A stretch of 64,000 bases of DNA from Candidatus Rokubacteria bacterium RIFCSPLOWO2_02_FULL_73_56 (GCA_001788495.1 MGCF01000114.1:1074-65073), one strand, 5' to 3'; shown: positions 2,047-26,000, counted from the first letter of the stretch. Numbers and translations: made by a program. Notes: generated from the letters alone by a model not told the origin.

Positions 2047-5000
2047 CTACCACCAGCAGCCCGGCTTGGGCGCCGGCTTGGGATCCGGGCGGATGACGAA
2101 GGCCTGGTCGTGGGCCTCGTCGTCCAGGTCGAGGTCATAGTACGGTGCCCACGGACTCGGCGAGCCGAGCGCCTGGCTGGTCCCGTACACGTCCAGGTGC
2201 CCCGCCCAGATGACCAGGCGCGCCTTCAGGATGTTCGCGAGCGTCGACGAGGTGTCGTGGCCGCTCCGGATCGTGTCCCGGTCCTTGCTCTTCTTGCCGG
2301 TCGCGCCCTCGAGCGTGTCGCTGTCGCCGCCGCCCACCAGGTAGTCGTCGCCGTCCCCGCCGTATAGCCGGTCCCGGCCGTCCTGGCCGAACATCACGTC
2401 GTCGCCGGCGCCGCCGTAGAGCGTGTCGTCGCCGGCCGTGACCTGGAAGTCCTCCTGGTCGTGGTCGTCGTGATCGTCGTGGTCGTGGTGCTCGTGGTGG
2501 TGCCACCAGCCGTGGTGGTGCTCGTGGTGCCCGATCTCGGTGAGGTCCTCGACCGCCTCCCACGCCTCGTCGATCGCCCAGCGGTCCTGCCAGCTCGGGC
2601 TGAACGTCGTGCTCACGTTCGGCGCCACCAGCGCGAGGCTGTCCCCGAACATCACGTCGTTGCCGTTGCCGCCGTCGAGCACGTCGTTGCCGAGCGTGAC
2701 GATGTCACCGGCCCCGTGGTGATGCCAGCTGCCGTGGTGCGACCAGTAGTCGTCGTGCCACGCCTGATGGCGGTGGCGGCCATGGTCCTTCCAGCCCCAC
2801 CAGTCGCCGTCCCACCAGTCACCGTCGTGCCAGCGGTGGTGCGGCTTCGAGGCCTTCCCGCCCTCCGTCAGCGTGACGTTCGCCGTCAGGTGGAGCTTCT
2901 GGTCGCCGACCAGGAGGTCGTCGCCGTCGCCGCCCAGGAGGGTGTCGGCGCCGATCGAGATCCGGTCCACGTGGTGGCGGAGCACGTCCTTCCAGGACCA
3001 GCCGCTCTTCACCTGGACGATCTCGTTGCGCAGGTGGTGCTGGATGTCGCCCAGCTCGAGCGCGGCGTGCTCGAGCTCCCCGCCGACGAGCTGGAGGCCG
3101 TCCACCAGGAACTCGAAGTCGTCCACGAGGGCGACCGGCATGGTGAAGTTCTGGGCGAGCACCGTGGAGTCGTCGCCCACCAGCACGTCGTTGCCCGCGC
3201 CGCCGTCGAGGAGGTCGGCGGCGATCGTGATCGTCGCGTCCACGACGGTCTCCTGCTTCCAGATGCCCGACCGCCACAGAGCCTCGGACACGGCGTGGTG
3301 GAGGACGGCCGTGAGGTCCGCGAAGTCGTCGGCGATGTCGAGCAGGTCGCCGGTCAGGCCGATCGCCTGCTCCATGCGCGTGTCCGTGAAGACGAGGGAC
3401 GCCGCGAGCACGGTGGAGTTGTCGCCGACCAGCGTGTCCTCGCCCGCGCCGCCGGTGAGCGTGTCGTTGCCGGCGACCAGGTCGAGGTGCGAGCGGACGT
3501 CCGGCACGACCGAGGCGAACGGCACGAGGTAGCTGCCGTCCGCACGGTGCAGGACGTTGTCCGCCGGGAAGAGCGGGATCCCGCCCAGCACGCCGAGCAC
3601 CGCCGGCAGCGGGTCCACGTCGTGGCCCGGGACCACCGATACCAGGGGCACGAGCGTCGTGCCGTCGGGGCCGAGCACCACGCCGGCGGCGGCCTCCACC
3701 GAGCCGGGGCCGGCGATGAGCCGGAGCGCGTGGACGACGTTCGGCACCGCGCCGTCGCCCGTCACGACCGTGGACCGGTCGCCCACGAGCTGGTCGTCGC
3801 CGTCGCCGCCGTCGAGCACGTCGTCGCCGAGGTCGCCCTCGAGGTAGTCGTTGCCGGGGCCGCCGGTCAGCGTGTCCTCGCCGCGGCCCGCGTAGAGGGC
3901 GTCGTCGCCCGCGCCGCCGTCGAGCACGTCGTCACCGTCCGGCACGAGCGTGACCAGGAACAGCTCGGTGTCCCACCGGTGCGTCCAGTGCTCCCACCAC
4001 CGGACGGGCGCCCGGTCGGGCACCAGGTCGTGGCCCCCGTCGGCGTCGAAGGCGCCCGTGACCAGGATGAGGTCGGCGCCGACGAGCGCGGCCGCGAGCT
4101 CCGGGGTGAGGTCGTCCCAGCGGAGCCCGTCCAGGTCGTACCGGGCCGTGAGCATGCCCACGTCGGTCAGCCAGACGTCGCGGTGCACCGAGCCGTTCGG
4201 GTTGAGCCGGCCCATGCGCTCGATCACGCCCGTGTCGCCCAGCAGGATGTCGTGGCCCGCCTCGCCGTAGAGCGTGTCGTTCCCGAGCTCGCCGTACAGC
4301 TCGTCGTCGCCCGCACCGCCGTAGAGGGTGTCGTCGCCGTCCTGGCCGTGGATCACGTCGGCGCCGCCGAGCGTCGGCGGGCCCGACGTCACCAACGGCG
4401 GCGTCACCGTGAGGTCGACCGTGCCGTTGTCGCCGACGACGATGTCGTTCCCGGTGCCGGCGGTGATGAAGTCGTCCGCCGCGCCGCCGAGGATGATGTC
4501 GTCGTTCGCGCCGCCCTCGATCGTGTCGGGGCCGCCGATCGTCGGGTCGGTCGTCTCCACCCGCGTCACGACGCCGGCGGTGCGCATCACGATCCCGTTG
4601 TCGCCCAGGATCACGTCGAAGCCGGCGCCGCCGGTGAGCAGGTCGCCCTCGGCGCCGCCCAGGATGATGTTGTCGCCGGCGCCGCCCGTGATCGTGTCGG
4701 CACCGCCGATGGCGGGCTCGGTCGTGAACACGTCGCCGCCGACGATCACCTCGCCGTTGTCGCCCAGGATGATGTTGGTGCCGCCCGGCGCGCTGATCAC
4801 GTCGGCGAAGGTGCCGCCCAGGATGATGTTCTGGCCGCCCAGGCTGGTGATGGTGTCCGGGCCGCCGGTGGTCCCGTCCTCGTCGCCCGTGATGACCCGC
4901 GTGACGACGCCGGCCGTCCGGAGCACCGCGCCGTTGTCGCCGAGGACCGTGTTGGTGCCGCCGCCCAGCGTGATCGCGTCGCCCGCCGCGCCGCCCAGGA

Positions 5001-8000
5001 TGATGTTGTCCGCGCCGCCGAGGATCACGTCGGCGCCGCCGATGGCGGGCTCGGTGGTGACCACGTCCCCGTCCACCACCACGTCGCCGTTGTCGCCGAG
5101 CACGATGTTCGTCCCGAACGACGCGTCGATGACGTCGCCGCCGATGCCGCCCAGGATGACGTTCCGGCCGCCCAGGCTCACGATCACGTCGGCGGCGCCC
5201 GTCGTCCCGTCCTCGTCGAACGTCTCCACGCGGGTCACCTGGTGGTCGCCGTCGCGGTACACGATGCCGTTGTCGCCCAGCACCGTGTTGGTCCCGCCGC
5301 GCAGCGTGATCGTGTCGCTGCCGACGCCGCCCAGGATGAAGTTGGTGCTCCCGGCCAGGATCGTGTCGTCGCCGCCGAGGTCGGGCTCGGTCGTCTGGAT
5401 GTCGTTGGCCACCGGCTGGTTCAGGGTCACCTCGCCGTTGTCGCCCAGGAGGATGTTGCTGCTCCCGCTCGCGGTCTCGATCGAGTCCTGGCCCACGCCG
5501 CCCAGGATCACGTTCACGCCGGCCTGGCTCAGGATCGTGTCGTCGCTCGCCGCCAGCGGCCCGAGGTCGGTCGTGAACACCTTCGTGACGTCGCCGAGGG
5601 TCCCGAGCGAGATGCCGCCGTTGCGGTTCACCTGGCCGTTGTCGCCCAGGACCACCGCGGTGCCGCCGCCCAGCGTGATCGCGTCGTTCCCGAACCCGCC
5701 CAGGATGATGTTGTCGCTGCCGGCCAGGATCGTGTCGTCGCCGCCCAGCGTCAGCTCGGTCGTCCAGATGTCGTTGGCGAGCGGCTGGTTCAGGTTCACC
5801 TCGCCGTCGTCGCCCAGGATGATGTTCTGGCTCCCGCCGGTCGCCTCGATGCGGTCCGCGCCCACGCCGCCCAGGAGGATGTTGGTCCCGCCCTGGCTCA
5901 GGATCGTGTCGTCGCCACCCGTCGCGCTCGTCGTGTCGGTGGTGACCACGCGGGTCACCGTGGTGACGAGCTGCCCGAGGGCGTCCAGCGCGCCCGTGCG
6001 GCTCACGTGGCCGTTGTCGCCCAGGACCACCGCCGTGCCGGTCAGCAGCTCGACGTGGTCCTGGCCGAAGCCGCCCAGGATGACGTTGTTGCTGCCGGCG
6101 AAGATCTGGTCGGCACCGCCGAGGTCGAGGTCGGTCGTGAAGACGTCCTCGTCGCCGACCCGGTTCAGGTTCACCACGCCGTTGTCGCCGAGCACGATGT
6201 TGTCGCTGCCGCCCGTCGCCTCGATCGTGTCACCGGCCACGCCGCCCAGGATGATGTTCACCCCGCCCTGGCTGAGGATCGTGTCGGGCCCGCCCGTCGC
6301 GGCCGTGCCATCCGTGGTCCGGACCTGGGTCACGACCCCGGCGGTGCGCGTCACGGAGCCGTTGTCGCCGAGCACGGTGTTCGTGCCCGCGCCCAGCGTG
6401 ATCAGGTCGGATCCTGCGCCGCCCAGGATCGTGTTGGTGGCGCCGCCGGTGATGACGTCGTCGCCGCCGACCGCGAGGTCGGTGCTGAAGATGTCACCGC
6501 CGACGTTCACCTCGCCGTTGTCGCCCAGCACGACGTTGCTGCCCACCGGGGCGTCGAGGAAGTCGCCGGCGACGCCGCCCAGGATGATGTTCACCCCGCC
6601 CAGGCTCGTGATGTGGTCCACGCCGCCCGTGAGCGCGCTGCCGTCCGTCGTGAACACGCGGGTGACGACGCCGCCCGTGCGGAGGACGTGGCCGTTGTCG
6701 CCGAGGACGACGTTGGCGCCGCTGTTGAGCGTGATCGTGTCCTGGCCGAAGCCGCCCAGGATGATGTTGTCCGCAGGGCCGGTGACCGACACGCCCGTGG
6801 CCTCGATGACGTCGTCGCCGCCCAGGTCGAGGTCCGTGGTCTGCACGTCGCCGTCGACGATCACGTCGCCGTTGTCGCCGAGGACGATGTTGCTGCTGCC
6901 CACCAGCGCGTCGATCGTGTCGCCCGCCACGCCGCCCAGGATCACGTTCACGCCGCCCTGGCTCGTGATGTGGTCCACGCCGCCCGTGAGCGCCGTCGTG
7001 TCCGTCGTCGTCACCTGCGTGGTCTGCTCGCTGCCGTCCCGGCGCACCACGCCGTTGTCGCCGAGGACCACGTTGGTGCCCGAGCCGATCGTGATGTCGT
7101 CGGGCCCGAAGCCGCCCAGGATGATGTTGTTGCTGCCCGACTCGATCGTGTCGTGGTCGCCCAGCGCGCCGGGGCCGCTCACGATCGAGTAGATGTCGTT
7201 GCTCACCGGCTGGTTCAGGTTCACCACGCCGTTGTCGCCGAGGATGACGTTGGCGCTGCCGACCAGCGCCTCGATGACGTCCTGGCCGACGCCGCCGAGG
7301 ATCACGTTCACGCCGCCCTGGCTCGTGATCGTGTCGCCGCCGCCCGTCGTGGCCAGCGTGTCGGCCGTCGCGACCTGCGTCGGCGTCTCCGCGCCGTCGC
7401 GGCGGACCACGCCGTTGTCGCCGAGCACGGTGTTGGTGCCGCTGCCCAGCGTGATCTCGTCGGCGCCGAAGCCGCCCAGGATGATGTTGTTCGTCCCTGA
7501 GAAGATGAAGTCCCGGTCGCCCAGGTCGAGCTCCGTGCTCTCGATATCGTTGGCCACCGGCTGGTTCAGGTTCACCTCGCCGTTGTCGCCCAGGATGACG
7601 TTGCGGCTGCCGCCCGTGGCGTCGATCCCGTCCTCGCCCACGCCGCCCAGGATCACGTTGACGCCGGCCGTGACCGTGATCGTGTCGCCGCCGCCCGTGC
7701 CGGCCGTGACGTCGGTGCTCTTCACCTGGTACGGCGTCTCGCCGCCGTCGCGCCGCACCGTGCCGTTGTCGCCGAGCACCGTGTTGACACCGCCGAGCAG
7801 CCGGATCTCGTCGGCGCCGAAGCCACCGAGGATGATGTTGTTGCTGCCCGAGAAGATCTGGTCGTCGTCGCCCAGCGCACCCGGCCCGTCCACGATCGAG
7901 GCGATGTCGTTGGCGGCGGCCTGGTTGAGGTCCACCACGCCGTTGTCGCCCAGGATGATGTTGCTGCTGCCGCCCGTGGCGTGGATCTCGTCCCGGCCCA

Positions 8001-11000
8001 CGCCGCCCAGGATCACGTTGACGCCGGCCGCGCTGGTGATGACGTCGCGGGCGCCCGTCGTGTCGTCCACGTCGGTCGTGGCCACGGTCAGGACGGTCTC
8101 GTCCGGCGCCGGTCCGCGCAGGACCTGGCCGTTGTCGCCGAGGATGACCGCGTTGCCGAGCCCGGTCGTGATCGTGTCGGTGCCGAAGCCGCCGATGATG
8201 ATCGAGCGGCCGCTGTCGCCGCCCTCGATGATGTCGTCGCCGCCGATGCCCGGCGCCACGCTGGCGATGTCGTTGGCGGGCGCCTGGTTGACCGTCACGT
8301 CGCCGTTGTCGCCCAGGATGATGTCGCTGCCCGCGCTGGCCTCGATGACGTCGCCCATGGCGCCGCCGATGATGATGTCGTTCCCGACGCCGCTGGTGAT
8401 CCGGTCCACGCCGCCGGTGGCCGGGTCGATCGAGGTCACGCGCTGCACCACGCCGCCGATCCGCGCGACCAGGCCGCCGTCGCCCAGGATCACGTTGTCG
8501 CCCTGGCCGCCCAGCAGCGTGTCGTTGCCGGCGCCGCCGATGAGGATCGAGCGGTTGCCGAACCCGGCCGCGAGCGCGTCCTCGGAGCCGGTGAGCACGT
8601 CGGCGCCGCCGATGGCGGGCGCGATCGTGAAGACGTCGCCGTCGAGGTCCACCACACCGGAGTCGCCGAGCACCACGTCGCCGCCCAGGCTGGCGGTGAC
8701 GACGTCGCCCGCGGCGCCCGCGATGGCCACGTCGGCGCCGCTGCCGCCGTCGATGGTGTCGAGTCCGCCGCGGGCCGGCAGCAGGGACTCGACCCGGGCC
8801 GGGGCGCCGGCGTCGAAGATCACCCGGGCGTAGTCGCCGACCAGCACGTCGTCGCCCTCACCGCCGAGCAGCGTCTCGCGGATCGGGTCGCCGGCCACGT
8901 CGGCGTTGTCGCCGCCGATGAGGATGTCGTCGCCGAGGCCGCCCGCCAGCGTGTCCACGCCGTCCACGTCCGCCTCCACCGTGACCAGGAGGTACGGATG
9001 GCGCACCGTGCCGGCCGTCACGTCCTCCGGTCCGCCGTGGCCGCGGACGGCCGTGGCCAGCGCCTGGAGCTGCCCGAGCGGCAGGCCGAGGTCCACCGCG
9101 CCCGGGTCGGCGAAGAACAGCAGGCGGCCGCGGTCGCCGACGAGGACGTCGCCGGCGTCGCCGCCGGTGATCACGTCCCGGTCCTTGCCGCCGAACACGA
9201 CGAGCGGCAGCGTCGAGCCGGTGCCGAGGACCGTGTCCTCGTCGTCGGTCACGGCGCCGACCGCCGACGTCTCCGTGATCCGCTTCGTCATCCGGACCAC
9301 GACCAGCGCGCCCGCCGGCGGCGTGGCCGCCGCCGTGAACGTCACGGTGTCCGCGGCCGGGTCCACCACGACACCGTCCAGGTCGGCCAGGTCGACCCCG
9401 TTGACCGACACGCCCACGACCTCGGTCACGCCGGGCTGGAGGTCCTCGCCGACGTGCAGGACGGGCGCCGCATCGTCGAAGGTGAAGGCCTCGGCCACCG
9501 TCCGCACGATCTCCACCTCGACCGACGCGCCGAGGAGCGGGCTCACCAGCAGGCCGATCCGGTCCAGGCCGAAGTCGGCCGAGAACTGGTCCGCCGTGAG
9601 CGCCACGCCGTCGACGGCGACGCTCACGAGGTCGGCCGGCGTGTCCGGGCCGGCGGCGTTCAGGCCGGCCGCCACCGGCACCAGCACGCTGTACTGGCCC
9701 TGCGTGTTCAGCACGAACCGGCCGTCGTCCGCCGCCTGCAGCGACACGGTGACGACGTCGTTCCCCAGGCCCGTGTTGAGCGTGGTCACCGTCTCGACCG
9801 GCTGGCCGCCCTCGGTGGCCGCCGGGCGGAAGTGCGTGTCGTCCACGGTGATCACGTCGGCGCCCGAGCCCGTCCAGATCGTGATGCCGCGCGCGAAGTC
9901 GCCCGCGGCGTCGGCGCGGAAGGTGATGCCGGCGGGCGCCAGGCCGACGATGAAGATCTCGGCGTCGCTCGCGACGTTCGGATCGACGGCCGCCGCCGCC
10001 GCGAGGCTGTCCGTGATCAGCACGCTGCGGCCGGCCGCGCTCGCCTCGTTGCTGATCATCAGCTGGTGGCGGCCGGTGCCGGCGTCGATGTTCAGCGTGC
10101 CGAGGAACGTGCCGAGGTGGCCGGACAGGAAGGCCGGTGTCTCGCCCATGGCCACGTTGGCCGCCGACGACACGTAGATCCACTCGTCGCCGTCGCCGAG
10201 GTCGAGGTTCGTCACCGCCGACGTGCCCGTGACGTTGACGACGTCGTCGCTGCCGAGCCTCACGTCCAGCAGGTCCACGCCGTAGTAGTTGATCCCGTCC
10301 AGCCGCGTCGCGACCGCCACCGTGCCCAGGAGGGCCGAGACGTCCACGAACGCGATGGCGATGTCGCGGTGCTCGCCCCGGAAGCCCAGGTGGTACGTGG
10401 TGCCGTGCTGCTCGACCGCCACGTTGTCCGTGAACGGCAGCGCCGGGTTGGCGTTGTTCGGGTTGAGCACCGCGCTCAGCGCCTCGAGCACCGCCGCCGC
10501 CGAGGCGTTGAACGCGATCGGCGCCGTGGCGAAGTCCTGGGCGACACCCTCGGCGTTGGCGCGGACGAAGTGGAGCACGAAGCTGCCGCCGGTCGCGTCC
10601 ACCGTCAGCGTCTGCACGGTGTCGCGCTCCGTCGTCAGCGCGCCGTCGCGCAGCGTGGCCACGCGCACGTCGGTGGACGCGCCGAGGCCGGCCACCAGCC
10701 CGGTCGTCTCGCGGGTCTCGCCCCACTCGAGCGGCGCGTGGTCGACGCCGGCCTGGCCGCGGATGAACGTCACCCGGTGGGTCACGTCCACACCGGTGCG
10801 GATCGACGACACCTTGAGGTCGTCGAAGCCGTAGAGCGCGCGCAGCCGCTCGGCCACGGCCTCGTCGTCCATCCCGTAGTCGAGGGTGACCAGGGCGAAG
10901 CCGGCGCCGCGCTCCACGAAGTCCGTGGTGGTGTCGGGCAGGCCCGTCTCGGTGCCGTAGCCCGGCGTGCGGAGCCGGTAGGTGCCCGAGGCGGCCTGCA

Positions 11001-14000
11001 CGAAGACCGTCTGGACCTCGGCCACCGTCGGCATGTCGAGGCCGGTCAGCGTGCTGGCGGTCAGGTCGAGCGTGGTGTCGTCGACCGCGTCGCCCGAGTC
11101 GTCGACCACCAGCGTGTCCTCGCCGGCGCCCATGTCCACGGTGAGCAACCCGGTGATCTGGTCCACGTTCTGCTCGTCGTTCGCCACGGTGACCGTGTCG
11201 TCGCCGGCGCCCGTCTCGATGGTGGCGTGGCCCACGATCGTCTCGACGGCGATCGTGTCGTTGCCGGCGCCGCCCCTCACGGTCGTGGAGCCCGCGTGGG
11301 TCGTCTCGACCGTGAAGTGGTCGTTGCCGCGGCCCAACCCGACGCTCACGACCTCGAGGTTCGAGTACGTGATGCCGCCCGGCACGAGGCGGCCGGCCAC
11401 CACCGTGGTGCCGCCCATGCCGAGGCCGGTGATCCGGCTGTCCGTCAGCACGCCGACGTCGTCGGCCGGGCTGTTGGTGTTGTCGACGTACAGCGCGTCG
11501 ACCTGGTCGTCCTCGATCACGCGGAAGTTCAGGTTGAACGGCGCGACGAAGTACAGGTCCTCCGCCACCGGCTGCGTCCCGGTCGGCCAGCCGGTCCGGA
11601 GCGTGACCCGCGTACCGGAGACCAGCGGCGCGTAGGCGGAGTCGATGCCCTCCTCGAAGAAGCCGGTGACGTCCGCGACCGTGTCGCCCGCCTGCACCGG
11701 GTAGGTGACCGCCGGCGCGCCGCCCAGCGCGATGCTCCACGTCCCGGTGCCGGCGCTCAGGATCCGGAACGCCGCCTGGGTCCAGGTCGTGAGCCCGACG
11801 TCCGCCAGCTCGAGGGTGCCGCCCAGGGTGGCCCCGCCCTCGACCGTCTCGCCGGGCGCGGCCAGCACGCTGAAGGTGGCGTTGAACCTGGTGCCGTCCG
11901 TCTTCGTGAGGATCAGGCGGCTGTCGCCCAGGATGCCCACGCGGACCTCGACGTCGAGCGCCGGCGTCTGGGTCCGGATGGCGTCGGCCAGGCGCTCGGC
12001 GATGCTCGACAGGACGGCCTCGCCGGCGCCGATCGGCACCGAGTAGGTCGTGCTCGGGCCACCCGACGCCGTGCCGTCGAGGTCCACGGTCAGCCGCCAC
12101 GTCTCGCCCACCCTGGCGACGCCGTCGAGGGTGACCACCATCCGCGTCCAGTCGAGGCCGCCGAGGCCCGTCTGGACCGGGGTGCCGATGAACTCCGCGC
12201 TGCCGCCCGCCGCCACCTGGAAGGCCACGCTGAACGCCGTGGCCTTCGCCACCGACAGGATGTCGGCGGAGACGGACGCCACGTCGAGCGTCAGCACGCT
12301 CTCGAGGTGGTTCACGGTCAGGAACGTCGCGATGAACGCGAAGTCGTTCATGCGCGGGTCGAAGCCCGGCCGCTCGCCCGTGCGGGCGTTGACGTGCATG
12401 GCGCTCGCGTCCGTGAGGAAGGCGAGGCCGTCGGTGGCGGTCCCGGTGCCGGTCACCTCGCCCTGCGGCAGCGGCAGGTTCTTCTCGCCCGGCAGCAGCA
12501 GCGGGTTGCCGAGGAACCGCTCCTCGCCCACCCGGATGCCGCCGTCGATGACCAGCGGCCCGCGGATCCCGTTCACCCGGCCCTCGAGCGCCGGGAACAC
12601 GAGGGCGTCGCTGCCGTCCACGAAGTCGTCGTCGAGCGCGCGCACGATGACCGTCTGGGCCTGGTTCCAGTCGGTCGTGGTGAACACGAGCTGCGGGGTG
12701 ACGACGGCGCTGCCCAGGCTCTGCGGCAGGACGTTGAGCGTCGCCGTGAAGTCGCCGCCGTGCGCGCGCTCCAGGCTGAGGACGCGGCCGCTGACCGCGA
12801 CGTCCCACGCGCCGGTCGGCAGCTGCTCGCCGAGCTTGCGCGCGACCGTGGCCAGGCTGTCGCCGAACCCGGTCGTGTAGCTGACCGTCGTCACGCCGAC
12901 GCCCGGCACGGTCAGGGTCAGCGTCCAGCGCTCGCCCTGGGCCGTGTGGCCGCCCAGCTCGACGTCCACGGCGCTGAAGAGGCCGGCCACCGTGCCCGGC
13001 GTCCCGGTGACGGTCGCCGTGCCGCGACTGTCGGCCACCGTCGGCGTGATCGACAGGGTCACGGTGAAGTCGACGAGCGCGGTCACCGTGAAGGCCGTCG
13101 AGTCGCCCGCGACCAGGCTCGCCGAGAACGAGAAGTTCAACGGGAAGCCCACGTAGACGAAGCCGTTGACCTGGCTGCGCAGGTCCGCGGCGATCGTCGC
13201 CAGCGTGTCGCCGGCCACGACCGTGTGCGTGACAACCCGCGGCGAGCCGATGGCCGGGGTAAACGTCAGGCGCCACTGCTCGCCCACGGCCGGCAGGCCC
13301 TCGAGGTCGACCGTCTTCACGTTCGACGAGCCGGTCACGGCGGCGGTGCCGCCGAGCGCGGGCAGCGCGATCGAGAAGGCCGAGAAGAAGGCGTCGGGCG
13401 CCGTCACGACGAGGGCGGTCGGGTCGGCCGGGTCGAGGACCGCCGTGAACCGCCGCCCGCCGACCCCGTAGATCCCCGCGGCGGAGTTGATCGCGTTCCG
13501 GAGGCTCAGGGCGATCGTCGCCAGCGTGTCGCCCGGCTGCACCGTGTACGAGAACCCCGGCAGCGCGTTCGACGAGCCGTCGGCCTGCGGCGTGTTCAGC
13601 GTGACCTTCCAGACCTCGCCCGGCGTCGGCGTGCCCTCGAGGTTGACGTACACGCGGGTGGTGGCCGTCTTGACCTGGACCTCGTTGTTCTCGCCGAAGT
13701 TGGCGTTCGGGTCGAAGGCGAGGTCCGCGTTGTAGGTCCGCGTCGCCTGCGGCGCCACGTCCACGATCACGGTGGCGTCGGGCTGGCCCGTGAGGACCAC
13801 CGTGTAGCTGGCGTCCACCGGCTGGTAGGCCGGGAAGTCCGACATGGGCTGGTAGATCTCGAACCGGCTCGTCGAGTCCGGCGTGACCGCCCACGTCGTG
13901 CTGAGGGTGTAGATGCGCTCCTCGGCGTCGTAGGCGGTGATGGTGGCTTCCTGGCCCTTGCCCGTGCCCTCCACGATCTGGATCTTCTTCCCGGCCAGCG

Positions 14001-17000
14001 TGATGGCGTCCGGGTTCGTCTGGTGCAGCTGGAGCGACACGATGAGGTCGTAGGACTGGCCGGGCATCACCCCGCCCTGCCCGTCCGCGAAGTACGTGTT
14101 CGGACGGCCGAGGTAGCGGGTGAAGCTCGCGTAGTCCACGAGGGAGCCGACGCGCAGCTTGTACACGCCGGCGGTGTTGAACGTGTGCTGCAGCAGCGGG
14201 TCCAGCGTCGTGGCGCTGCCCGCGTCGAGGGCGTGCGAGCCGGCCGAGGTACTGCTCGCCAGCACCGAGCCGTTCGGCGCGATCAGCTCGAGGGTTAGCC
14301 GCGCCGTGAAGTCCAGCAGGTCCGTCACCGAGAAGAAGAAGAAGCCGAAGAAGAAGAACGGCACCGGCACCTGGACCGCGCCCTGGATGAGGTTCGCGCG
14401 GTCGATGTCGAACACGCCCTTCACCACGCCGCCGCCGCGCGTGGCGCTGATCCTGAACGGATCGTCGCCGGCCACGGTGACGCCGGCCGCCTTCGCCTTG
14501 TCGATGATGCGGACCTGGCCGGCCGCGAAGTCGCCCGTCTGCAGCTCGGCGCGGAACGGCGCCGCCGCGTCGGCGTTGATCGCGTTGGCCAGCCCCTGGG
14601 CGACCGTGCCGAGCTGGCGCACCGTCGCGTTGCCGAAGGGCGCCAGGAAGCTGTAGGTCCGGCCGTCGATCGTGATCGCCCACGTCTGGCCTTCCTCGTA
14701 CGGGCTGCTCAGCCGCACGACGCCGAGGAGGTAGAAGTCGTCGGCGCTCGCCGTCGAGGCGGTCGTGGTGAAGGCCACCGGCCGGAGCTGGGTCGCCGGC
14801 CCGATCGCGACGGGGGCACCCGTCGCCGACTCCACCACCAGCGCCCCGCCGTCGTTCGACAGCGTGTGCCCGGTCGCGATGAGCGCCGGGAGCGCGAGGA
14901 AGAGGTCCACGATCTGGCTCGTGGTCTGGCCCGCGGACGGCAGCACCGTGTAGTCGACGCCCGCCACCCGCAGCGTCCACGTGTCGCCCTCCTGGGCCAG
15001 CGCCGGGCCGGCGGGGTTGAGGGCCACGCTCTGCGTCCACGCGAGCGGCACCGTGCCGCTGACCGTCGCGGCGGCCGCCGCCGGGTCGCGCGCGATGGCC
15101 ACGTCGAGGGCGAAGGCGGCGCCGCCGGCGACCTTCGAGACGTAGACCGTCGCGCCGGCCGCGAAGGCCGTGTAGCCCGCGAGGCCGTTGGCCTGGCCCG
15201 CGAAGGCGGTGGCCACGGCGTCGGCGACCGCGGCCGGGGTGGCGACCGTGAAGCCCGGCGTCAGCGCGGAGCCGGCCACGCTGAGCGTCCACATGTCGCC
15301 GGCGTTCACGGGGCCGGTCAGGTCGACGCGCAGCGTGGTGGCCGTGCCGACCGACGCGCTGCCGCTCGGCGTGATGGACCGCGCGACCGTGAACGTGCCG
15401 CCGGCGGCGCGGGTCACCGTGAGCGTGTCGCCCGTCCGTAGGATAACGAAGGTGGCGCCGGCCGCGAGGTCGCCCTGGAGGTCCGCCACCACGGCGCCGA
15501 TGGTCGGCGTCGGGCTCGACGGGATCGTGAACGTGCCGTTGACGGGCGTGCCGGACGGCGTCGGCGTCAGCGTGACGTTCCAGACGTCGTCCGCGGTCGG
15601 CGTGCCGGAGAAAGCCAGGGAGGCCGCCGGCTGCTCCGCGCCGACCGTCTGGCTGCCCAGGCCGGCGCCGTCCACCGTCACGCTCAGCGCGACGCCGAAG
15701 TCGTCCGTGGACGCCGTCCGGGTCACGATGATCTGGGCGCCGCGCGCCTCGGCGTCGAAGTCGGCGGCGGCGTCGATGTCGGCGGCCAGGTCGGCCGCCA
15801 CCTCGTCCGGCGTGTCGCCCGGCGCGACCGGGTACGTCGCCACCACGAGCTCGCCGCCGTCCGTCAGCCCCAGCCGCCACGTGTCACCGGCGTCGATCAG
15901 GCTCGGCAGCGTGAACGTCTCCACGCGCACGACGGTCGGCGCGGGCGTCAGCGTCGGCGTCACCGTGTCGGGCTCGGCCGGGCTGGTGATGGACGGCACG
16001 GCCGCCGTGAAGCCGCCGGAGAGCCGGCTGAGCGTCAGAGTGGCGCCGCTCGCGGTCGCGAAGAAGTCCGTGAAGGCGTTGATGGCGTCCCGGAAGCTCC
16101 CGGCGATGGCGTCGATCGTGGGCGAGCCGCTGATCGGCACCTGCGCCGTGTGCAGGGTGGACGCGCCGTCCATGAGCGCGATGGCCCACGTGTCGCCGTC
16201 CACCACGGTGCCGGCCAGCAGGTAGGTCAGCGTGGTGGCCTCGGTCTGGGCCGCCGGCTGCCGGTCGATCGTCAGCGACGCCGTGAACGTGTGCGCGGTC
16301 ACGGCGATGATCGTGATCGCGTTGCCGGAGGCGACCGCGGTGAACGCGCTCGAGGCGTCCACCTGGCCCGCCAGGTCGGTCGCCACGGTGCTCGCGCTGT
16401 CCTCGGTGCTGTCGTACGGATCGCCGGCCACCGTGAGGCGGAACACGTCGGCCGCGTCGACTGCCCCGATCGTGATCACGCGGGCCACCGTCAGGGCGTC
16501 CGTGGCGATCGACGCCACCGGGTCCACCGACAGGGTGACGTCGAAGTCGTCGCCGGAAAGGCGCGTGACGACGACCGTGGCGCCCTCGGCGACGGCGCGG
16601 AAGCCGCTGACCGCGTCGAGCAGGCCGGCCAGCGTCGAGGCCACCGCACTCGGGGTCGCCCCGGAAGCGGTCCTGGTCGCGAGCACGGTGGTGCTCGGAG
16701 CCGGCTCGCCGAGCGTGACGCTCCAGACGTCCGCCGCCTGGAAGCTCGTCGCGATCGTGATCGTGTGGCTCACGACCGACGGCGCGGTCTCCGCCGTGAA
16801 GGCGCCCGACACCGCCACCGAGACGCTCACCGTGAAGCCGGCCGCCTTGCTCACGGTCACCACGGCGCCGCTCGGCGTCACGGTGTAGCCGCCACCGTTC
16901 AGCGCTCCCGCCAGCAGGCCTGCGAGCGTCGCGCCCGAGGTGCTCGGCGCCGTCTGCGTGGTCGTGCGCGTGGGCGGCGTCGCGTCGTCGAGGTCGGTGA

Positions 17001-20000
17001 GCGTCACCGTCCAGTCTTCGCCCGGCCGCACCGCGCCCGGCAGCGTGATCTGGGCGGTCGTGAAGGCGATGGCCGGGACGTCGCCCTGCGACAGCGGCGT
17101 GCCGCCGATGGTCGCCGTGCCCTGCGGGGCGGCGCCGGCAACCGTGAAGGACAGCGTGAACCCGGCCGCGCGCGTGATCGTCAGCGTGTCGCCGAGGCTC
17201 GAGCCCGTGCCGGCGCCGAGCGCGGTGTTCAGCGAGCCGGCCAGCGCGGCGGCGATGCTGGTCAGGGTGTCGCCCACCAGCACCGTCCGGGCGGCCGTGG
17301 TGGCGCCGCCGTCCAGCGTGACCGACCACACCTCGCCGGCGGCCGGCGCGCCCGCCAGCCCCACGTTGGCCGTGCCGAAGGTGATCGGGGTCGTGCCGTC
17401 CGCCGCGAGCGCCTGCGTCGACCGGGTCACCGTGGCGGTCTTCCGGGCCTCCTGGGCGACGCCGTTGACGGTCAGGCCGTGCAGGTTGAAGCCGTTCGGG
17501 TCGGTGATCGTCAACGCGCCGTTGGCCGCGACGGTCACCGTGTACCGCGCCGGCAGCAGGTTCCTGAGACCCGTGCTGACGTCGTCCAGCGAATTGTCGC
17601 CCGGCTGCACCGTGTAGGCGTAGTCCCGGTACCGGAGGCCGAGCGTCCACGTGTCGCCGGCGGCGACACGGCCGTTCGGCAGCAGCGTCACGCTGGTGAA
17701 GAACGGCCCGTTCGGGTCCACCACCGTGCCGGCCGTGGCCGCCGGCGACTGGGCGAACGCCGACGGGTTCAGCATGGCCGCGGTGATCTCGAACGAGTAG
17801 AGGTCGAAGCTGCCGTCGCCCGAGCCCTGGATCCGCGCGAACGGCGTCGAGAAGGTGATGTTCGAGCCGTTGCCGACCTCGGGGTCGAAGAACGTGAAGA
17901 AGTTGTCGCGGTCGTCGATGTCCTGCGCCGCCCCGCCCGCCTGGAGGCTCTCGTTCTCCAGCACCGCCGACGGCGCGAACACGAAGTCGGCCGTCTCGTG
18001 CTGCTCGATCGACACCTGCAGCGTGTAGTCCACGCCGACGGGCAGGCCGGAGGTGAACAGCCAGCTCGTGACCTCGAGGTAGTACCGGCCCGCCTGGGTG
18101 AACGTGAAGGCCAGGAAGTCGTCGAGCCACGTCGTGCTGCCGCCCGCGCCGGCCGTGAGCGGGTCGGAGAAGCCCCGGCCCTGCGCGATGCGGTCGCCGT
18201 TGGCGTTGTAGAGCCTGAGCAGGCTGAGCCACAGGATGCGGTCGCCGAACTCGAACCCGTGGTCGATGTCGAAGCTCGCCTGCACGCCGTTCGACCCGGC
18301 GTCGGCCAGCATCTCCGCCGTGATCTCGAACGAGTAGAAGTCCGGGTCGCCGTTGCCGGTGCCGAGCACGGTCAGGTGCGGCTCGAGCGCGGGGTCGCCG
18401 GTCACGCTGGCGATGTCCGGGTGCGCGTTGCGGCTCCAGTCGCCCAGCCCGAGGTCCTGCGCGGTGAAGGTCGAGTTGTGGAACTGGACCTCGTTGAGCA
18501 CGGCCGTCCCGAAGTCGCCGATGAACTGGTTCGACGCCAGGCTGCCGCCCACCTGCGTGACGTAGCCGTCGCCCAGGAGCACGAACTGGGTGGGCTCGAC
18601 GACAGTCGTCCCGCCGTGCGTCTCGCGGACGAGGACGGTCGGCGCGTCGTCGTCGGTGAGCCGGACGTCCACGGGGCCGGGCTGCGTGACCTCGCCGTTG
18701 GCCCCCGCCGTGTAGACGTAGGTCGCCACGTCGCCGCTCCGGGCGTCCGCGAGCCCCAGCGTCCAGGCGTCGCCGGCCCCGATCACGCCGCTGCCGGCCA
18801 GCGTGATCTGGACCTCGGTGTAGAACGCGGCGCTCGTGGGCGCGAGGGCGGTGCCCGAGCCGCCGGTGAACGACGCCGTGAACGCGCTGCCGTCGTCGGC
18901 CGTCACGTGCAGGACGTTGCCGCTCAGCGTGGCCTCGAACGGCTGGCCGGACGCGTTGACCAGGCCTGCCAGCGTGGCGGCGACGGCGGCGGGAGCGGCG
19001 AGGAACCCGCCGACCGTGCTGTAGATCGACCCGTTGAGGTTCAGGGAGAACAGGGTGCCGCCGAGCGACAGCGAGTCGCCGACGACGGCGTCCACCGACG
19101 TGTAGCGCGCCGTGCCGACATTGGTGAACGTCGCCGTCCCGAAGGTCGTCGCCAGCGAGTCCACGCCGAACGGCGCGTCCGTGTTGGTGAGGGTCAGGAC
19201 GTTGCCCGCCACGCCGGCCGTGTAGGCGGCCGTGAGGTCGCCGGCGACCTGGGCGCCGAGGCCGCGCGCCGCGTCGGCGAGCGTGATCCCGAGGAACTCG
19301 TCGGTCTCCGACGTGATGGCGTGGGCCACGCGCGAGAAGTGGATCCCTTCCCTCTTCGCGTCGTCGACGGCCTGGATCTCGACGACCTTCAGCGTGTTCC
19401 AGTTCCCCGGCGTGAAGGTCAGGACCTGGCTGGCCGCCCACGTGCTGGTGCCGAACTCGCGCACCAGGACCTCGCCGTCGGCCGAGACGGCGACGGTGAC
19501 CGTGCCCACCGGCGCCTTGCTCAGGACCACCGCGTAGGCGTCCGTGGCCGGCAGCGAGCCCGACGGGTTCTCGGAGACCAGGGTGTCGTCGTCGGCGCGC
19601 TGGCTCGTCTCGTCGAACGGCACCACCACGACCTCGGCGGCGTCGTCGTCGATCACCTGCACGGGCAGGCTCGCCAGCGCCAGGCCGTCGTACGGGTCGC
19701 CGTCGTCGGCGTTGGCGCCCTCCACCACCGTGTGCAGGATCGTGATGCCCCGGTGGCCCTCGGCCAGCCCGTCGTCGATGGCCGTCACCGTCACGTGCTG
19801 CGGGATGAACCAGTTGTTCTTGTCGAACAGCAGGGTCACGCCCGCCTCGTTGCCGTTGAGCGCGATGCCGGCGCCGCCCGCCTTCTTCTCGCGCTCACGG
19901 CCCGCGGACGGGGCGGCCGTGATGCGGACGTTCTCCAGCGGGGCCCGCGTGAGCACGATGTCGTAGCTGGCCACCACCAGCTCGTCCGGGGCGGCCGGGT

Positions 20001-23000
20001 TCTCGAACACGCGCAGCGGCCCGCCGCTGAGGCTGAGCAGGACGCCGGCCGTGTCGTTGTCGGCCACCTTGACCGAGAGGTCCGGCACGAACACCGCGTC
20101 GTAGTCCACGTCGGGGCTCGACGCGGTGTGCTCGACGAGGGCGCTGTGGCCGTCGAGGCTCTTGCTCACGACCACCACCGGCTCGCCGTCGTTGCCGCCG
20201 CCCACGCTGAAGGTGTCGCTGCCGCGGCCGCCCTGGATCTCGAGGATCGCGTTCGCGGGCGTGCTCACGATGAAGAACCGGTCGTTGCCCTCGAGCGCGT
20301 CCACCACGATCTTCTCGATGCCGGCGTAGGTGATGGCCAGGCCGGCGCCGAACACGCCCTGGTCGGTGATCACGAAGTCGTCGCCGAACTCCGTGCCGAC
20401 CACGACCAGGGTGTCCAGGCCCTCGCCGCCCTCGATGCGGACCGGCGCGTTGACCGTGTACGAGATGAAGTCCGCGCCCTGGCCGCCGTTGATGGTGGTG
20501 AACGGCGCCAGCGGATCGTCCGGGTTGACGCGCACGAAGGCGCGCACGCGGAAGGTGTCGTCGTCCTCCTCGCCGAAGAGGGCGATCGACGCCGTGTTGT
20601 GGTAGACGGTGAAGCTGTCCTTGCCGAAGCCGCCGAAGAAGATGCCCGGCTTGCTCACGCCGTTCGAGAGGTAGCCCAGCGTCACCCGCGTCGTCTCGAA
20701 GAAGTCGAGGTCGGCGAGGCCGTTGTGCGGGTTCGAGCCGTCGCGCGGCGAGGCGAAGACCTGGCCGATCTGGAAGGTGTCGTCCCCGGCGTCGCCGAAG
20801 ATCGTCGTCGGGGCCAGCGTGTCGTCCAGGATGAAGACGTCGGCGCCCTCGCGGCCGTAGATCGTGAGCGTGCTGTTGATGTCGCCGTCGTAGTTGACGC
20901 GCTCGAAGAAGCCGCCCGCCACGGGCTCGAGGTTCGCGTCCACCTGGAAGGCGGCGACCACGCCGATCCGCGGCGTGACCGTGGGCAGGTTGGCGCGGAG
21001 CAGGAAGAAGTCCGGCCCGTCGGTGCCGTAGACGATGAGCCGGTTGACGCCCAGGTCGTCCGCCGGCGACTCGTCGATGACGTTGATGAGCGCCTTGCCG
21101 GTCGCCGCCAGCCCGATCTCGTAGAGGTCGCTGCCCGCGCGCCCGTGCAGGGTCAGCGGGTGCAGCTCGTCGCGCAGGCCGCTCTGGAAGGTCTGCTGGC
21201 CGTTCTCGTCGTAGTTCACCCGGATCGTGTCGTCGTCCTGGACGCCGTCGCCCGGCCCGCTCTCGGGGTCGAACAGGCCGCCGCCGACCACCGTGGTGCC
21301 GCCGAGCGAGCGGATGTTGAGGACGTCGTCGCCGCCGCCCAGGTCGAGCTCCAGCACGCTGTCCAGCGGCGTGGAGTGTACGAAGAAGGCGTCCACGCCC
21401 TGGCTCAGCCAGACGTCGAGGTTCTCGAAGCCCGTGGAGGCGATGCCGGCGGTCATCCCGGCCGGCGCCGTCATGCCGAGGCCGGTCAGCGAGGCCGCGT
21501 CCAGACGGCCGGTGTTGGGGCCCGCGTCGCCGCTGTCGTAGGCGCGCAGCGTGTCGGCGCCGTCGGCGGCGGCGAGCGTCAGCGGCGCGCTGATGCCGTT
21601 CAGCGTGCTCGTGCCCGTGGGATCGATCAGGTCCGTGCGGCTGCCCACGCGCACGGTGTCGGCGCCCGGGCCCGTGAAGATCGTCGTCGGGCCCGCGATC
21701 GTCATCACGTTGATCGTGTCGGCGCCCATCTGGCTGTCCACGCTGGTCGGGCCCGTGATCGTGGACTGGATGGTCAGCGTGTTGTTGCCCTGGCCCAGGT
21801 GGACGTCGATCTGTTCGAAGGCGAGGTAGCTCATCGAGCCGCCGGCGCCGAAGATGCCGGTGACGAGCGAGCCGGACAGCGTGCCGGTGTTGGTGCCGGT
21901 GTCCTGCGTGTCGTCCACGGTGACGGTCTCGGCGCCGGTCGTCGAGTCCAGGGCGAGCAGCGCGCCGATGCCGTTGGCGTGGCCGAGGACGTTCAGGAAC
22001 TTCAGGCCGTCGGCGTCCGCCTGCACCGCGGGCAGCTCGGTCGTGAGCCACGCGCCCGCCTGGCTGCCCACCGCGAAGCGGTCGGTGCCGCCCTGGCCCA
22101 GGATCGCCGTCGTGCCGCTGATGGCGCGGACGGCGATGCGGTCGTCGCCCCCGCCCGCGTTGATGGTCGTGCCGCCCGTGTGCGTCGTCACCACCGTGAT
22201 CGTGTCGGCGCCGGCGCCCAGGCCGAGGGTCAGGCTCTCGAGGCCCGCGTAGAGGACGTCGCCCGGCATGCCGGTCGGCACCGCGAAGAAGGTCACGACC
22301 ACGTCCGCGTCGGCGTCCGGCCGGACCGACGGCGTCAGCCGGAGGCGGTCGCCGGTCAGCGTGTACTGGCCGGCCGGCAGCTCCAGGCCGTCGATCGTCA
22401 CCTTGACCACCGTGAACGGCGTCACCGGCAGGTCGAACTCCGCGTAATCGGCGTCGCCGAACACGAAGCTCTCGGCGCTCGGCTCGGCGCCGGCCTCCGC
22501 GCCCACGGGCAGGTAGGTCACGACCACGTCGGCGGTCTCCGAGGGCCGGACGGTCGGCCGCAGCGTGATCTGCGTGCCGCTCACCTGGAACTCGCCGGCC
22601 GCCAGCTCGAAGCCGCCGACCGTCACGCTCGGCGTGCCCTGGGGCTCGGCGACCAGGATGAAGGTCGCCGCGTAGCCGGCGCCGAAGACGAAGGCCGCGG
22701 CGTCCGGCGCCTCGCCCTGCACGCGGAGCCGCTGCAGCGTGAGGGCGTGCTCCACCGGGTCGGCCGTCGAGTGGAAGACCGGCTCGCCGCCGCGGTGCAG
22801 GCGCGCCTCGTTCCCCAGGTAGACCTTGGGGTCGCCGGCCGCGTACAGCGCCGGCACCCACTCGCCGGAGCCGGGCGAGGTCTCGACGAGGACGATCTCG
22901 CCGCGCGCGTGGTTCTTCACCTCGAGCCGGTAGACGAAGGTCACGCGCGTGTCCACGAGCGGCTTCGTCGTCGGCGTCACGCTGACGACAGGACGGTTCG

Positions 23001-26000
23001 GGTCGGCCATGCTCACGCTGAAGGTCCCGACGAGCGGCTGGCCGTCGAGCAGGACTTTGAGGAACTGGTCCGGGCGGCCCGCCTTCAGCGTGAACTGCTG
23101 CGTGGCCGCGCCGTCACGCGTGAACGTGAACTCCTCGGTGCGGTTCTTGCCCACCGTCTCGGCCGTGTGGAGCGCGACCGCGCCCAGCGCGTCGAGGACC
23201 AGGTTGCCCTGGCTGTCCACGATCGGCTGGCCGACCTGGAGCGGCTCGTTGCCGAAGTACTGCTGCGGGTCGTCCGCGTCGTGGACGGCCGGCGTCGCGA
23301 TCACGACCGTCACCGTCACCTGGGCGCCCGCGGTCGGCACGGCGCTCGACAGCGTGAGCGTGTTGTCGGTCGCGTTCACGGCGAAGGCCGAGGCGGCCAG
23401 GCTGAAGATCCGCGTGCCGTCGTACACGGTCACCGCGACCTGGTCGGCGGCCCCGAGGTCGTAGGCGAAGCCCGCGACCGTGTCCAGGTCGAGGACGGTG
23501 CCGCCCGGCAGCGAGGCGCGCGTGAAGGCGACCGGCGTGTACAGCGTGCCCTCCGGCACCAGGTCGCCCTGCGCGTCCACCAGGTCGTACACGCGCTCGA
23601 GCCGGTTGTGGATCTGGACCTGGTCGGCGCCGTGCAGGAACGCCGAGCCGTCGCCGTTGAACACCTGGGCGCCGTTCTCGTCGAACACCGGCTCGCCGCC
23701 CAGGTACCGCTGGAAGGCGCCGCCGAGCTGGTAGACGGGCTCGCCGGCCGTGTGCAGCAGCGGGTCGCCCGCCTCGTGCAGCAGCGCCGCGCCGAACGGA
23801 TCGCGCAGCACCTTCGGGTTGCCGAAGGCGTCCTTCGCGAAGAGGTCGACGACCACGTCGCCCGCCGCGTGGACCAGCGGGACGTGCGTGAACGGATCGA
23901 GCACCGGCTCGCCGCCGAAGTAGAGCTCCTGCACCGGCGACTGCCAGTAGGTCGCCACGCCCGCGCCGTGGAGGATCGGGCGGCCCTGCGCGTCGAGGTC
24001 GGCCACCGGGATGCGGTAGGTGGCGAGCGTCGCGCTCACGTCCGTCGCGTCCCCGGTGTTCACGAGGTTCAGCACGTCGGTGCCGCCGCCGCCCGCCGCG
24101 ATCGAGTCGAAGACGCGGACGAAGTCGCGCAGCTCGGTCACGTTGACGGGCACGAGCGACGGGCGGTTGACGCCGGGGAACACGTCCGTCTTGCGCCCGG
24201 AGGCGTCGATCCACAGGTTCACCGCCGACGCGCTCGAGAAGTCGGTGATGAAGCTCCTGGTGTTTTTCGCGCGGATCACGATGTTGTCGATCTCGTACGA
24301 GGCGTCCTGGCCGTTGCGCTCGCCGGCGAACGCCACCGTGGCGTGGTCGCCGGTCGCGGTGAACTCCGCGGTGAAGCTCTGGAACGGCCCGCTCGCCGGC
24401 GCCTGGGACTTGCGCGCCTGGAACTTGACGGCGCCGTCCACGAGCACGGCGAACGAGGTCGGGGCGGTGCCGGAGTCGCTCCCGTACTGCGCGTAGATGT
24501 TCCGGTACTGACCCGTGATCTGGTACGTCACCCCCGGGTTCAGGTTCGCGAGCGTCTGCTGGATCGTCGGGTCGCTGCCGGCCGCGCCGTTGCTGTTCAG
24601 GACGTACGTCTGGTTCGTGACCGTGCTGATCCGGAAGAACGGGAACGTGCCCGTGAACTCGAACGTGAAGAACAGGATGTTGCTCCGCCAGCCGCCGTTG
24701 CCGTCGATGTTGAAGGTGCTGAACCCGCCCGCGGTGCCGTTGAGCGGCACGAAGTCGTCGAAGTCGCCGTTGGTGGCGATGTCCGTGCCGAGCTGCTCGA
24801 ACACCTTGTCGAAGCTCGTGTCCACGTAGACCTGCTTCACCGGCCCTTCCTGGCTCGAGTCCGCGGGCACGATGACCGGGATGCCGGTGGACGTCGCGAG
24901 GTCGGTGATCTCGTTGCCCTCGGCGTCGAAGTAGAGCGGGGCGCCGGCGGCCAGGCCGTTGGCGGTCTTGTGCTTGCCGAACTCCGCCACGCCCTTCTCC
25001 TGGACGAGCTTCTCGACGATCGCGCCGCCCTCGTCGAGCACGACCGTCCGCGCCTGCAGCGCCGAGCCGTTGCCGGCGACGGCGTCCGTGTCCTTGAGGA
25101 TCGGCACCATCGTCGCCCTGAAGTAGAGCGTGCCGTCGCTGGCGACGAACGGGTGCGCGAAGTCGTTGACGATGCCGGTGGTGCCGAGCGGCACGAGCAC
25201 GATCTTCGCCGTGAGGAACGGCTGCAGGAACGCCTCGTCGTCGCGCACCGGGTCCGGGTGCTCGCTGAGCGCGGCGTCGCCGTCCACGGTGAGGCGGTCG
25301 ATGATCTGGGCCAGCCGGTCGTCCGGCGCCTGCACGGTGATGACGTCGTTGCCGTCGCCGCCGTTGACGTGCGTCGGCCCGCCGACGGACTTGATCTGGA
25401 TGGTGTCGTTGCCGCCGCCCGCCCAGATCAGCACGCTGGTGCCGGCCGGCGTCTCGGTCACCGTGAAGTTGTCGGCGCCGTCGTCGGCGGCCTTGCCGGG
25501 GGAGGCCGAGCGCCCGTCGGCCAGCCGCAGCTCGACGTTCTCGATACCGCCGAGCTCGACGCCGTGATAGACCGTCGTGTCCTGCGCCGCCTTGCCGCCG
25601 GCCGGGATGCCGAGGCCCGCGCCCTCGAGGCTCAGCACCGTGTCGAAGATCGGGGCGCCGTTCTCGTCGTGGTCCGGCCCGAAGATCGGGATGCCGTCGT
25701 TGCGCAGCTCGCCCGCCTCGTCGACGACGCCGTCGGCGTCGTCGTCGATCCCCGGCAGGCCCGGCACGAAGCGCGGGATCTCGCCGATCTGCGTCATCCG
25801 CTGCGTGGTGCGCAGCCGCAGCTCGCCGGCGGGCGAGGTCCCCTCCTGGTTGTGGTAGATCACGCGGTCGCCGTCCGTCTCGAACTGGTCGCCGCCGTTG
25901 ATGGTCAGGCGGCCGCGGATCTCGGAGGCGTCGAGGCTCCGGTCGGCCTTGAAGGCGAACGGCAGCGGATCGACCTCGACCGGCGGCGGCTGGATCAGCT

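Follow-up and report, generated by a model that had tools for sequence, protein, structure and literature searches.

A long array of alternating RTX-like units near the C-terminus of a giant Rokubacteria protein

Introduction

The window analysed here, a 64,000-nucleotide stretch from Candidatus Rokubacteria bacterium RIFCSPLOWO2_02_FULL_73_56 (GCA_001788495.1, MGCF01000114.1:1074-65073), carries on its minus strand part of a giant gene whose product contains a long repeat array near its C-terminus. The locus raises the question of what this array is: how its repeat is built, how it relates to the RTX proteins, whether its length changes, and what it might do for the protein that bears it. Canonical RTX proteins have between 4 and about 50 tandem nonapeptides, arranged in blocks of 6-8 with irregular linkers (PMC6891781).

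We report that the array belongs, as one of its large members, to an unnamed variant of the RTX beta-roll with three turns per unit. The RTX beta-roll is a known kind; this variant, a regular three-turn super-repeat whose units alternate, is widespread yet undescribed, and our literature search found no description of the approximately 58-aa super-repeat or of giant genes in Rokubacteria. We consider it probable that the array forms a long, continuous, RTX-derived and calcium-stabilised beta-roll rod of tunable length, set near the C-terminus of a giant and probably extracellular protein.

Results

The array and its repeat unit

A hidden Markov model (HMM) derived from the units recognised 25 solid copies (aa 18384-19849, 38-75 bits) and three further weak ones (aa 18237-18262, 18319-18382 and 19859-19916), which together bear out the roughly 28 copies counted in a first-pass annotation of this DNA. 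The range given there, 4306-9226, does enclose the solid array, although its N-terminal part of about 470 nt (8761-9226) holds only degenerate units. The translated minus-strand open reading frame (ORF) has 24 copies of the motif LGD[NDSG]G, which follow one another every 52-69 aa. Self-comparison, which had been proposed as a check, revealed periodicity in the protein and in the DNA: protein autocorrelation peaked at lags of 120, 237 and 357, and also at 60, 18 and 9; DNA autocorrelation peaked at 360, 711 and 54; and Tandem Repeats Finder returned periods of 336, 360 and 375 nt with 77% match.

Two types of unit alternate along the array. Type A reads GGVNVILGGVGxDxIxAxGGSxNIILGDNGxV followed by a short tail, and type B reads GSNNIILGGFGxDxITLGxGTNxVLGDNGxVxRxGxxVTxVxTTDxxxxTGG. 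Because the two types alternate, the true period is a di-unit of about 118 aa. The super-repeat of about 55 aa that had been proposed in place of tandem nonapeptides was therefore right in kind and close in length (about 58 aa), but it is half of an alternating A/B pair and not a single repeating unit. Of the 12-13 A units, only 6-7 carry the LNQPxANDI tail that was part of the earlier consensus.

Each unit consists of four RTX-like nonapeptides, xxGxGx(D/N)xU, GGxGxDxIx, xxGxGx(D/N)xU and LGDNGxUxx, followed by a variable element of about 20 aa that AlphaFold2 models as a loop in type A and as a beta-hairpin in type B. Fully canonical nonapeptides number 19 in 1,466 aa, about one per unit, and they never stand in tandem; their neighbours are degenerate (xxGGxNxUx, xxGSxNxUx and LGDNGxVxx), and the insert of about 20 aa follows after every four. 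The array is rich in Gly (20.5%), Asp (11.2%), Thr (10.9%) and Val (10.8%), lacks Cys, and is strongly acidic, with 200 Asp and Glu against 36 Lys and Arg residues (net charge about -164).

Relation to RTX proteins and predicted fold

Taken alone (window 4519-8763, minus strand), the array passes the Pfam gathering cut-off for PF00353 HemolysinCabind, with 33.4 bits against 23 (E = 4.4e-8) in six stretches. The match is nonetheless weak for its length, 33 bits over 1,415 aa of array compared with 168 bits over the 823-aa C-terminal tail of the same protein, and the tandem xUxGGxGxD nonapeptides in blocks of about 6-8 that mark canonical RTX proteins do not occur in the array. NCBIfam holds no specific model for it and gave only far sub-threshold matches to RTX equivalogs. 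A profile (A1) compared with Protein Data Bank (PDB) sequences found the CyaA RTX domain at E = 3.5e-11 and the beta-rolls of serralysin and lipase at about 1e-3; phmmer, given three di-units as a single sequence, matched no PDB chain. RTX adhesins are marked by an N-terminal retention module and an extender of tandem Ig-like domains; of such an extender there is no sign here, since Pfam detected none of the BIg, cadherin and Calx-beta domains among the 20,620 aa within the window.

Structure prediction had also been suggested as a check, and AlphaFold2 models of three and of five di-units both came out as a continuous all-beta solenoid. In both models a short strand recurs every ~9 residues and the tail of the B unit forms a hairpin. 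Since there are six short strands per unit, each unit would provide three turns of a two-sheet roll. No segment of the longer, 589-aa model falls under a pLDDT (predicted local distance difference test) of 50. Foldseek searches of the PDB gave 3p4g, 6sus and 7usl_C as best matches, with the RIV domain of MpIBP (3p4g) at probability 1.00 (target-normalised template-modelling score 0.60-0.63, root-mean-square deviation about 5 A, identity 12%) and CyaA RTX at 0.96-0.99. A parallel, two-sheet, right-handed beta-roll, as in RTX proteins, and a single continuous unblocked roll, as in MpIBP RIV, are thus present in prediction only. The uniform 19-residue repeat of the latter is absent, the period here being 52-69 aa with no sequence match to 3p4g. 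Together, the PF00353 score, the profile match to CyaA and serralysin, the all-beta models and the Foldseek hits agree with the first-pass assignment to the beta-roll type.

The same unit is widely distributed. In a search of 1.84 billion proteins, the di-unit profile retrieved 3,397 cluster representatives from several phyla, 495 of them at E <= 1e-30; their sources give them no more specific name than "calcium-binding protein" or "Ca2+-binding RTX toxin-like protein". Aligning 3,119 units from 246 other proteins gave the consensus DtIxxGxGx[DN]x[IV]xGGxGxDtIxxGxGx[DN]x[VI]lGDnG plus a variable stretch of about 20 aa, which is equivalent to two RTX-type turns of 18 residues, or four nonapeptides, and a linker. 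Asp at unit position 19 is conserved in 97% of units and Asp or Asn at positions 10 and 28 in 85-87%, while the unit tails (columns 36-55) are the least conserved part of the alignment. The highest unit counts were 56 (Planctomycetaceae MEZ6122879.1), 52, 51 (Monaibacterium marinum WP_097929398.1) and 49. The array had been held to be extreme in size, and it is indeed far longer than any characterised beta-roll, but 8 of the 246 retrieved family proteins have more units. The A unit with its LNQPxANDI loop is confined to 6 of 247 retrieved proteins.

Among individual relatives, the closest with A/B di-units lies on ENA ERZ25039522 contig_70746 (about 50% identity, about 28 units). Its gene is split over three frames into many small calls, which looks like the result of long-read frameshift errors and not like real pseudogenisation. 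Litoribrevibacter euphylliae KCTC 52438 (L025 15604-21703) encodes a homologous giant protein of more than 5,015 aa with 21 units of two alternating types. Downstream of that gene come two genes for membrane-fusion proteins of the HlyD family, of which one has a GAF domain and the other a Peptidase_M50 domain, and then a gene for a SecA-like ATPase; these neighbours are a candidate export set, an unusual one that differs from the classical ABC/MFP/TolC (ATP-binding cassette transporter, membrane-fusion protein, outer-membrane protein) arrangement. In another relative (P0104) the array fills aa 22-3399 of 4,022 and apparently also alternates two unit types. A Pirellulales protein shares the C-terminal architecture of the giant protein with about 4-5 units. 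Unit counts vary far more widely among such distant relatives than between the alleles described below.

Copy-number polymorphism

When the C-terminal 823 aa were used as the query, representative genomes of GTDB yielded no close relative, the best being a Pirellulales metagenome-assembled genome (MAG) at 31% identity. For this reason copy number was compared at species level among metagenome contigs: eight sequences, the window and seven others from the ENA and JGI pipelines, all of them short-read assemblies. The window, JGI 3300025167 and ENA ERZ4903125 have 24 LGDxG units, whereas ENA ERZ27254809 and ERZ27254873 and JGI 3300025325, 3300025327 and 3300025289 have 22. The difference is one di-unit, absent in frame from the shorter form. 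The deletion fuses units 21 and 23 within SLGG(R/Q)N(V/I)ILGG, with the crossover in a 15-nt identical run, TCATCCTGGGCGGCA, and its junction is identical in 5/5 short-form assemblies. Outside the deletion the alleles differ at only 5-15 of the remaining ~3,040 codons, with synonymous and non-synonymous changes roughly equal. The 55-64 mismatches counted by blastn might be taken for mostly synonymous divergence of about 1%; this was ruled out by codon-exact comparison, which shows a shifted repeat register.

The two recombining di-units are 67% identical in DNA when ungapped and 76% when codon-aligned, and since they are so diverged, the long allele is ancestral and the short one its deletion derivative. 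Among themselves the di-units share 57-77% identity in DNA and 36-73% in protein, and exact repeats reach at most 35 nt, at offset 360. Such figures, with a crossover of 15 bases, point to recombination at short homology or to slippage rather than to efficient homologous recombination. The earlier expectation that copies similar in DNA could recombine to change copy number was thus partly borne out: a whole di-unit has been lost, as five assemblies show, but between copies that are only 67-76% identical in DNA. Collapse of the repeat by an assembler is implausible, because a 15-nt match is far below assembly k-mer sizes and the same junction recurs in five assemblies.

Carrier gene and surrounding locus

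The array-bearing ORF spans window 2047..63909 on the minus strand, 20,620 codons counted from the first GTG in the window. There are zero in-frame stops in 63910-64000, so that the 5' end lies beyond the window. An exact 49-mer from the window end led to two loci, and the giant ORF is open to the locus end in both; in the overlapping JGI contig (locus L042) the frame continues open for a further 4.8 kb, and the gene call on an ENA contig, 22,240 aa, is likewise cut by the contig end. The protein is therefore at least about 22,250 aa long, and its N-terminus lies beyond the sequence reached. The gene ranks among the largest bacterial genes, in a phylum not noted for them. Its frame has a GC content by codon position of about 0.67/0.48/0.99, with the third position at 0.98-0.99 throughout. 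Long plus-strand ORFs over the array were rejected as shadow frames, their GC1 being lower than GC2, the reverse of the giant-gene frame.

Table 1. Positions of the array, its flanks and the modelled segments within the window.
Feature	Position	Strand	Details	Basis
Giant coding sequence	2047..64000	minus	5' end cut by window end	
Solid array	4363..8760	minus	25 units of 52-69 aa, A/B alternating; 12.5 di-units of ~118 aa	HMM
Degenerate N-terminal flank	8764..9201	minus	Two weak units: aa 18319-18382 (8.3 bits) and aa 18237-18262 (1.8 bits)	HMM
Degenerate C-terminal flanking unit	4162..4335	minus	aa 19859-19916, 16 bits; transition to canonical RTX tail	HMM
C-terminal tail	2050..4362	minus	771 aa, canonical RTX nonapeptide blocks	Translation, Pfam
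Polymorphic di-unit	4827..5159	minus	333 nt/111 aa; present in window and 2 other assemblies, absent in frame from 5	Assembly comparison
Three di-units	6976..8046	minus	aa 18622-18978, 357 aa; AlphaFold2 pLDDT 92.7, pTM (predicted template-modelling score) 0.93	Model
Five di-units	4519..6285	minus	aa 19209-19797, 589 aa; AlphaFold2 pLDDT 89.5, pTM 0.89, 60 strands	Model

Within the C-terminal tail, canonical RTX repeats stand in tandem (e.g. 3784-3918), and the protein ends in ...KPGCWW. Between its canonical blocks lie His/Trp/Asp-rich low-complexity inserts (2449-2529 and 2713-2841, minus strand; e.g. HHRWHDGDWWDGDWWGWKDHGRHRHQ and HHEHHHGWWHHHEHHDHDDHDDHDQED), which may bind metal. In the approximately 18,000 aa upstream of the array, a Pfam scan found no match other than a weak HemolysinCabind block. 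This second RTX-like block (window ~26400-29300, minus strand; aa ~11,700-12,500) has canonical nonapeptides, scores 30 bits with HemolysinCabind and is 23-27% identical to the C-terminal array. The upstream part also contains at least six internally repetitive blocks (aa 1-3000, 3500-7000, 7000-10900, 11500-12500, 13500-14700 and 15000-17400), and the extra N-terminal sequence in L042 resembles Gly/Ala/Thr/Val-rich beta-helix repeats.

Two small genes next to the giant gene have exact matches in Candidatus Rokubacteria MAGs (e.g. OGK98113.1 in GCA_001790345.1). The convergent 65-aa ORF (MAEFKRIKIRATL..., window 1835-2032, plus strand) is conserved and has no family match; 82 blocks of the public assembly collection contain the identical protein, which three Rokubacteria MAGs list as "hypothetical". 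The downstream gene (window 418-1689, minus strand) encodes a WHD_Rv2258c and SAM-methyltransferase protein, annotated in a MAG as a 358-aa "transcriptional regulator". The 10 kb beyond it carry genes of metabolism (MaoC dehydratase, Memo, hydantoinases, cytochrome c), and genes for secretion are absent from this stretch. The window has no Rfam match. In the NCBI MAG copy (GCA_001790345.1, MGCJ01000141.1) the repeat region contains a run of Ns, the reading frame is lost and no gene is listed, so that the giant gene is effectively unannotated there.

Discussion

How might such an array work? We propose that each ~58-aa unit would supply three turns of the roll, two from its four nonapeptides and the third from the ~20-aa loop (A) or hairpin (B), making the A/B di-unit of ~118 aa a building block of six turns. 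The very acidic array would be disordered at the low calcium of the cytosol; outside the cell, calcium bound at the turns bearing Asp or Asn would turn it into a rigid rod. Taking 25 units of three turns and an assumed rise of ~0.48 nm, we estimate the length of the array, about 150 nonapeptide-equivalents, at ~36 nm. The rod could serve as a stiff spacer and might also be a folding ratchet for export; the hairpins and loops, which recur along it at regular intervals, may offer a binding surface. Recombination or slippage between units of like type would lengthen or shorten it by one di-unit (~2.9 nm) at a time. At the C-terminus, the array is followed by canonical RTX blocks and then a tail of about 100 aa, and RTX repeats followed by a C-terminal tail are the layout of type I secretion substrates (PMC6891781); it is only this layout that, by analogy, suggests type I secretion of the giant protein. 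Such substrates also have a C-terminal secretion signal that is not cleaved off, and are served by a dedicated set of ABC transporter, membrane-fusion and outer-membrane proteins.

Several points weigh against a calcium-stabilised extracellular rod. Calcium binding is predicted indirectly, from the conserved Asp and Asn positions of the unit and the net negative charge, and only about one nonapeptide per unit is fully canonical; since the second arc here usually bears Asn and not Asp, occupancy may be partial or one-sided. Type I secretion genes are lacking within 10 kb downstream of the giant gene, and the Pirellulales relative of like C-terminal architecture has no adjacent secretion genes in about 4 kb downstream. 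The substitutions between alleles are too few to provide evidence of purifying selection, and both alleles are known from short-read metagenome assemblies. Finally, the evidence does not separate a spacer from a ligand-binding role.

A bolder proposal, possible but doubtful at present, is that the ~58-aa unit defines a distinct, unnamed calcium beta-roll subfamily containing the longest continuous rolls known, in which the di-unit would be the quantum of structure and of evolution, and recombination between like units would set, in ~3-nm steps, the length of a cell-surface rod that serves as a molecular ruler on a megadalton protein of uncultured Rokubacteria. The predicted rods would then extend from the length estimated here to as much as ~80 nm in the Planctomycetaceae protein.

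That the array is mainly a ligand-binding, adhesive surface, with B hairpins and A-type LNQPxANDI loops forming a repetitive face like that of ice-binding MpIBP RIV, seems to us rather unlikely. Indeed, the domain with the closest solved fold, MpIBP RIV, is what an RTX adhesin uses to bind ice, the array abounds in Thr, Asn and Asp, and the variable parts of the unit coincide with the protruding third turn; but identity to MpIBP RIV is 12%, no domain match implies a ligand, the tails that would form such a face are the least conserved columns of the family, unlike a shared ligand site, and loss of a di-unit is tolerated in most assemblies.

We regard as unlikely, too, that the array is chiefly an export device, that is, an oversized calcium-driven Brownian ratchet that, folding from its C-terminal end outside the cell, draws a chain of over 22,000 aa through a type I duct. 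RTX repeats are required for efficient translocation of larger passengers, their number grows with protein size, and their vectorial C-to-N folding works as a ratchet (PMC6891781); a strongly acidic array placed C-terminally, just upstream of canonical RTX blocks, would suit this role. However, genes for an ABC transporter, a membrane-fusion protein or an outer-membrane protein are absent from the 10 kb downstream, the neighbours of the Litoribrevibacter relative are HlyD-like and SecA-like and not those of a classical type I secretion system, and relatives carry their arrays in the middle or at the N-terminus of the protein, as P0104 does, because of which a structural role fits better than a C-terminal ratchet.

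An artefact, either a non-coding shadow frame in high-GC DNA (72% GC, with long spurious ORFs on both strands) or repeat collapse in assemblies that are all short-read and include an NCBI copy with Ns and frame breaks, is very improbable and largely excluded by a reading frame that runs for over 66 kb without a stop, with a GC3 of 0.99 and the normal GC1 > GC2 that antisense ORFs reverse, by hundreds of homologues of the product, and by a junction of 15 shared bases between di-units 67-76% identical, far below assembly k-mer sizes, that recurs in five assemblies of both the JGI and ENA pipelines while the long form recurs in three.

We therefore retain the calcium-stabilised rod as the preferred reading of the array. 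Our data show how the unit is built, its kinship with RTX repeats, the fold predicted for it, the change in copy number and the broad spread of the unit; that calcium is bound, that the protein is exported, how long the rod is and that it serves as spacer or ratchet are inferred. For specialists its structure is plausible rather than surprising; what deserves notice is how long it is, that it varies by a di-unit and how large its carrier gene is. Domain libraries see in the regular three-turn variant only a weak HemolysinCabind, yet it occurs in thousands of large "calcium-binding proteins" of several phyla, and a dedicated family model would sharpen the annotation of these giant proteins. Should experiments confirm it, no other continuous calcium beta-roll would come near such arrays in length, and they could provide modular, calcium-switchable rods for protein engineering. 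The natural di-unit deletion offers a concrete case of length variation in a beta-solenoid through recombination between diverged repeats.

Set beside canonical RTX proteins (PF00353; serralysin/alkaline protease, CyaA, HlyA), the array shares Gly/Asp-rich turns of nine residues, with GGxGxDxUx once per unit, an acidic composition, a predicted two-sheet roll and a position adjoining canonical RTX blocks at the C-terminus. It differs in its spacing, since every four nonapeptides are followed by a regular element of ~20 aa through which the roll is predicted to run on, and in its ~150 nonapeptide-equivalents arranged in alternating A and B units.

The best structural match, RIV of Marinomonas primoryensis MpIBP (3p4g), is a continuous non-canonical roll of 12 uniform 19-residue repeats (xGTGNDxUxUGGxUxGxUx) with calcium bound along a single side; the canonical RTX and type I secretion region follows directly after it, and one flat face binds ice (PMC6891781). 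Continuity and position are thus common to both, whereas the Rokubacteria array has a three-turn repeat of 52-69 aa in two alternating types, is only 12% identical and is about six times longer. With the RTX adhesins (LapA, SiiE, FrhA, MpIBP) the carrier shares very large size, repetitiveness and C-terminal RTX repeats, and length variation based on repeats is plausible in both; unlike them, it has no Ig-like or cadherin extender domain found in ~18,000 aa. Other giant bacterial proteins, such as those of Chlorobium chlorochromatii and Omnitrophota, are also very large and repetitive, and a survey of giant genes (10.1101/2023.11.21.568195) does not mention Rokubacteria.

The nearest kin are the ~58-aa-unit proteins of Planctomycetota, Verrucomicrobiota and Alpha- and Gammaproteobacteria, which have the same unit consensus in arrays of 17-56 units (e.g. 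MEZ6122879.1, WP_097929398.1, HVZ63437.1 of Lacunisphaera sp. and Litoribrevibacter euphylliae L025). What sets the present case apart is its Rokubacteria host, a carrier protein several times larger and the rare LNQPxANDI A unit. Moreover, whereas the copies in Litoribrevibacter appear near-identical by eye, those of the Rokubacteria array are old and diverged, with 36-73% protein identity.

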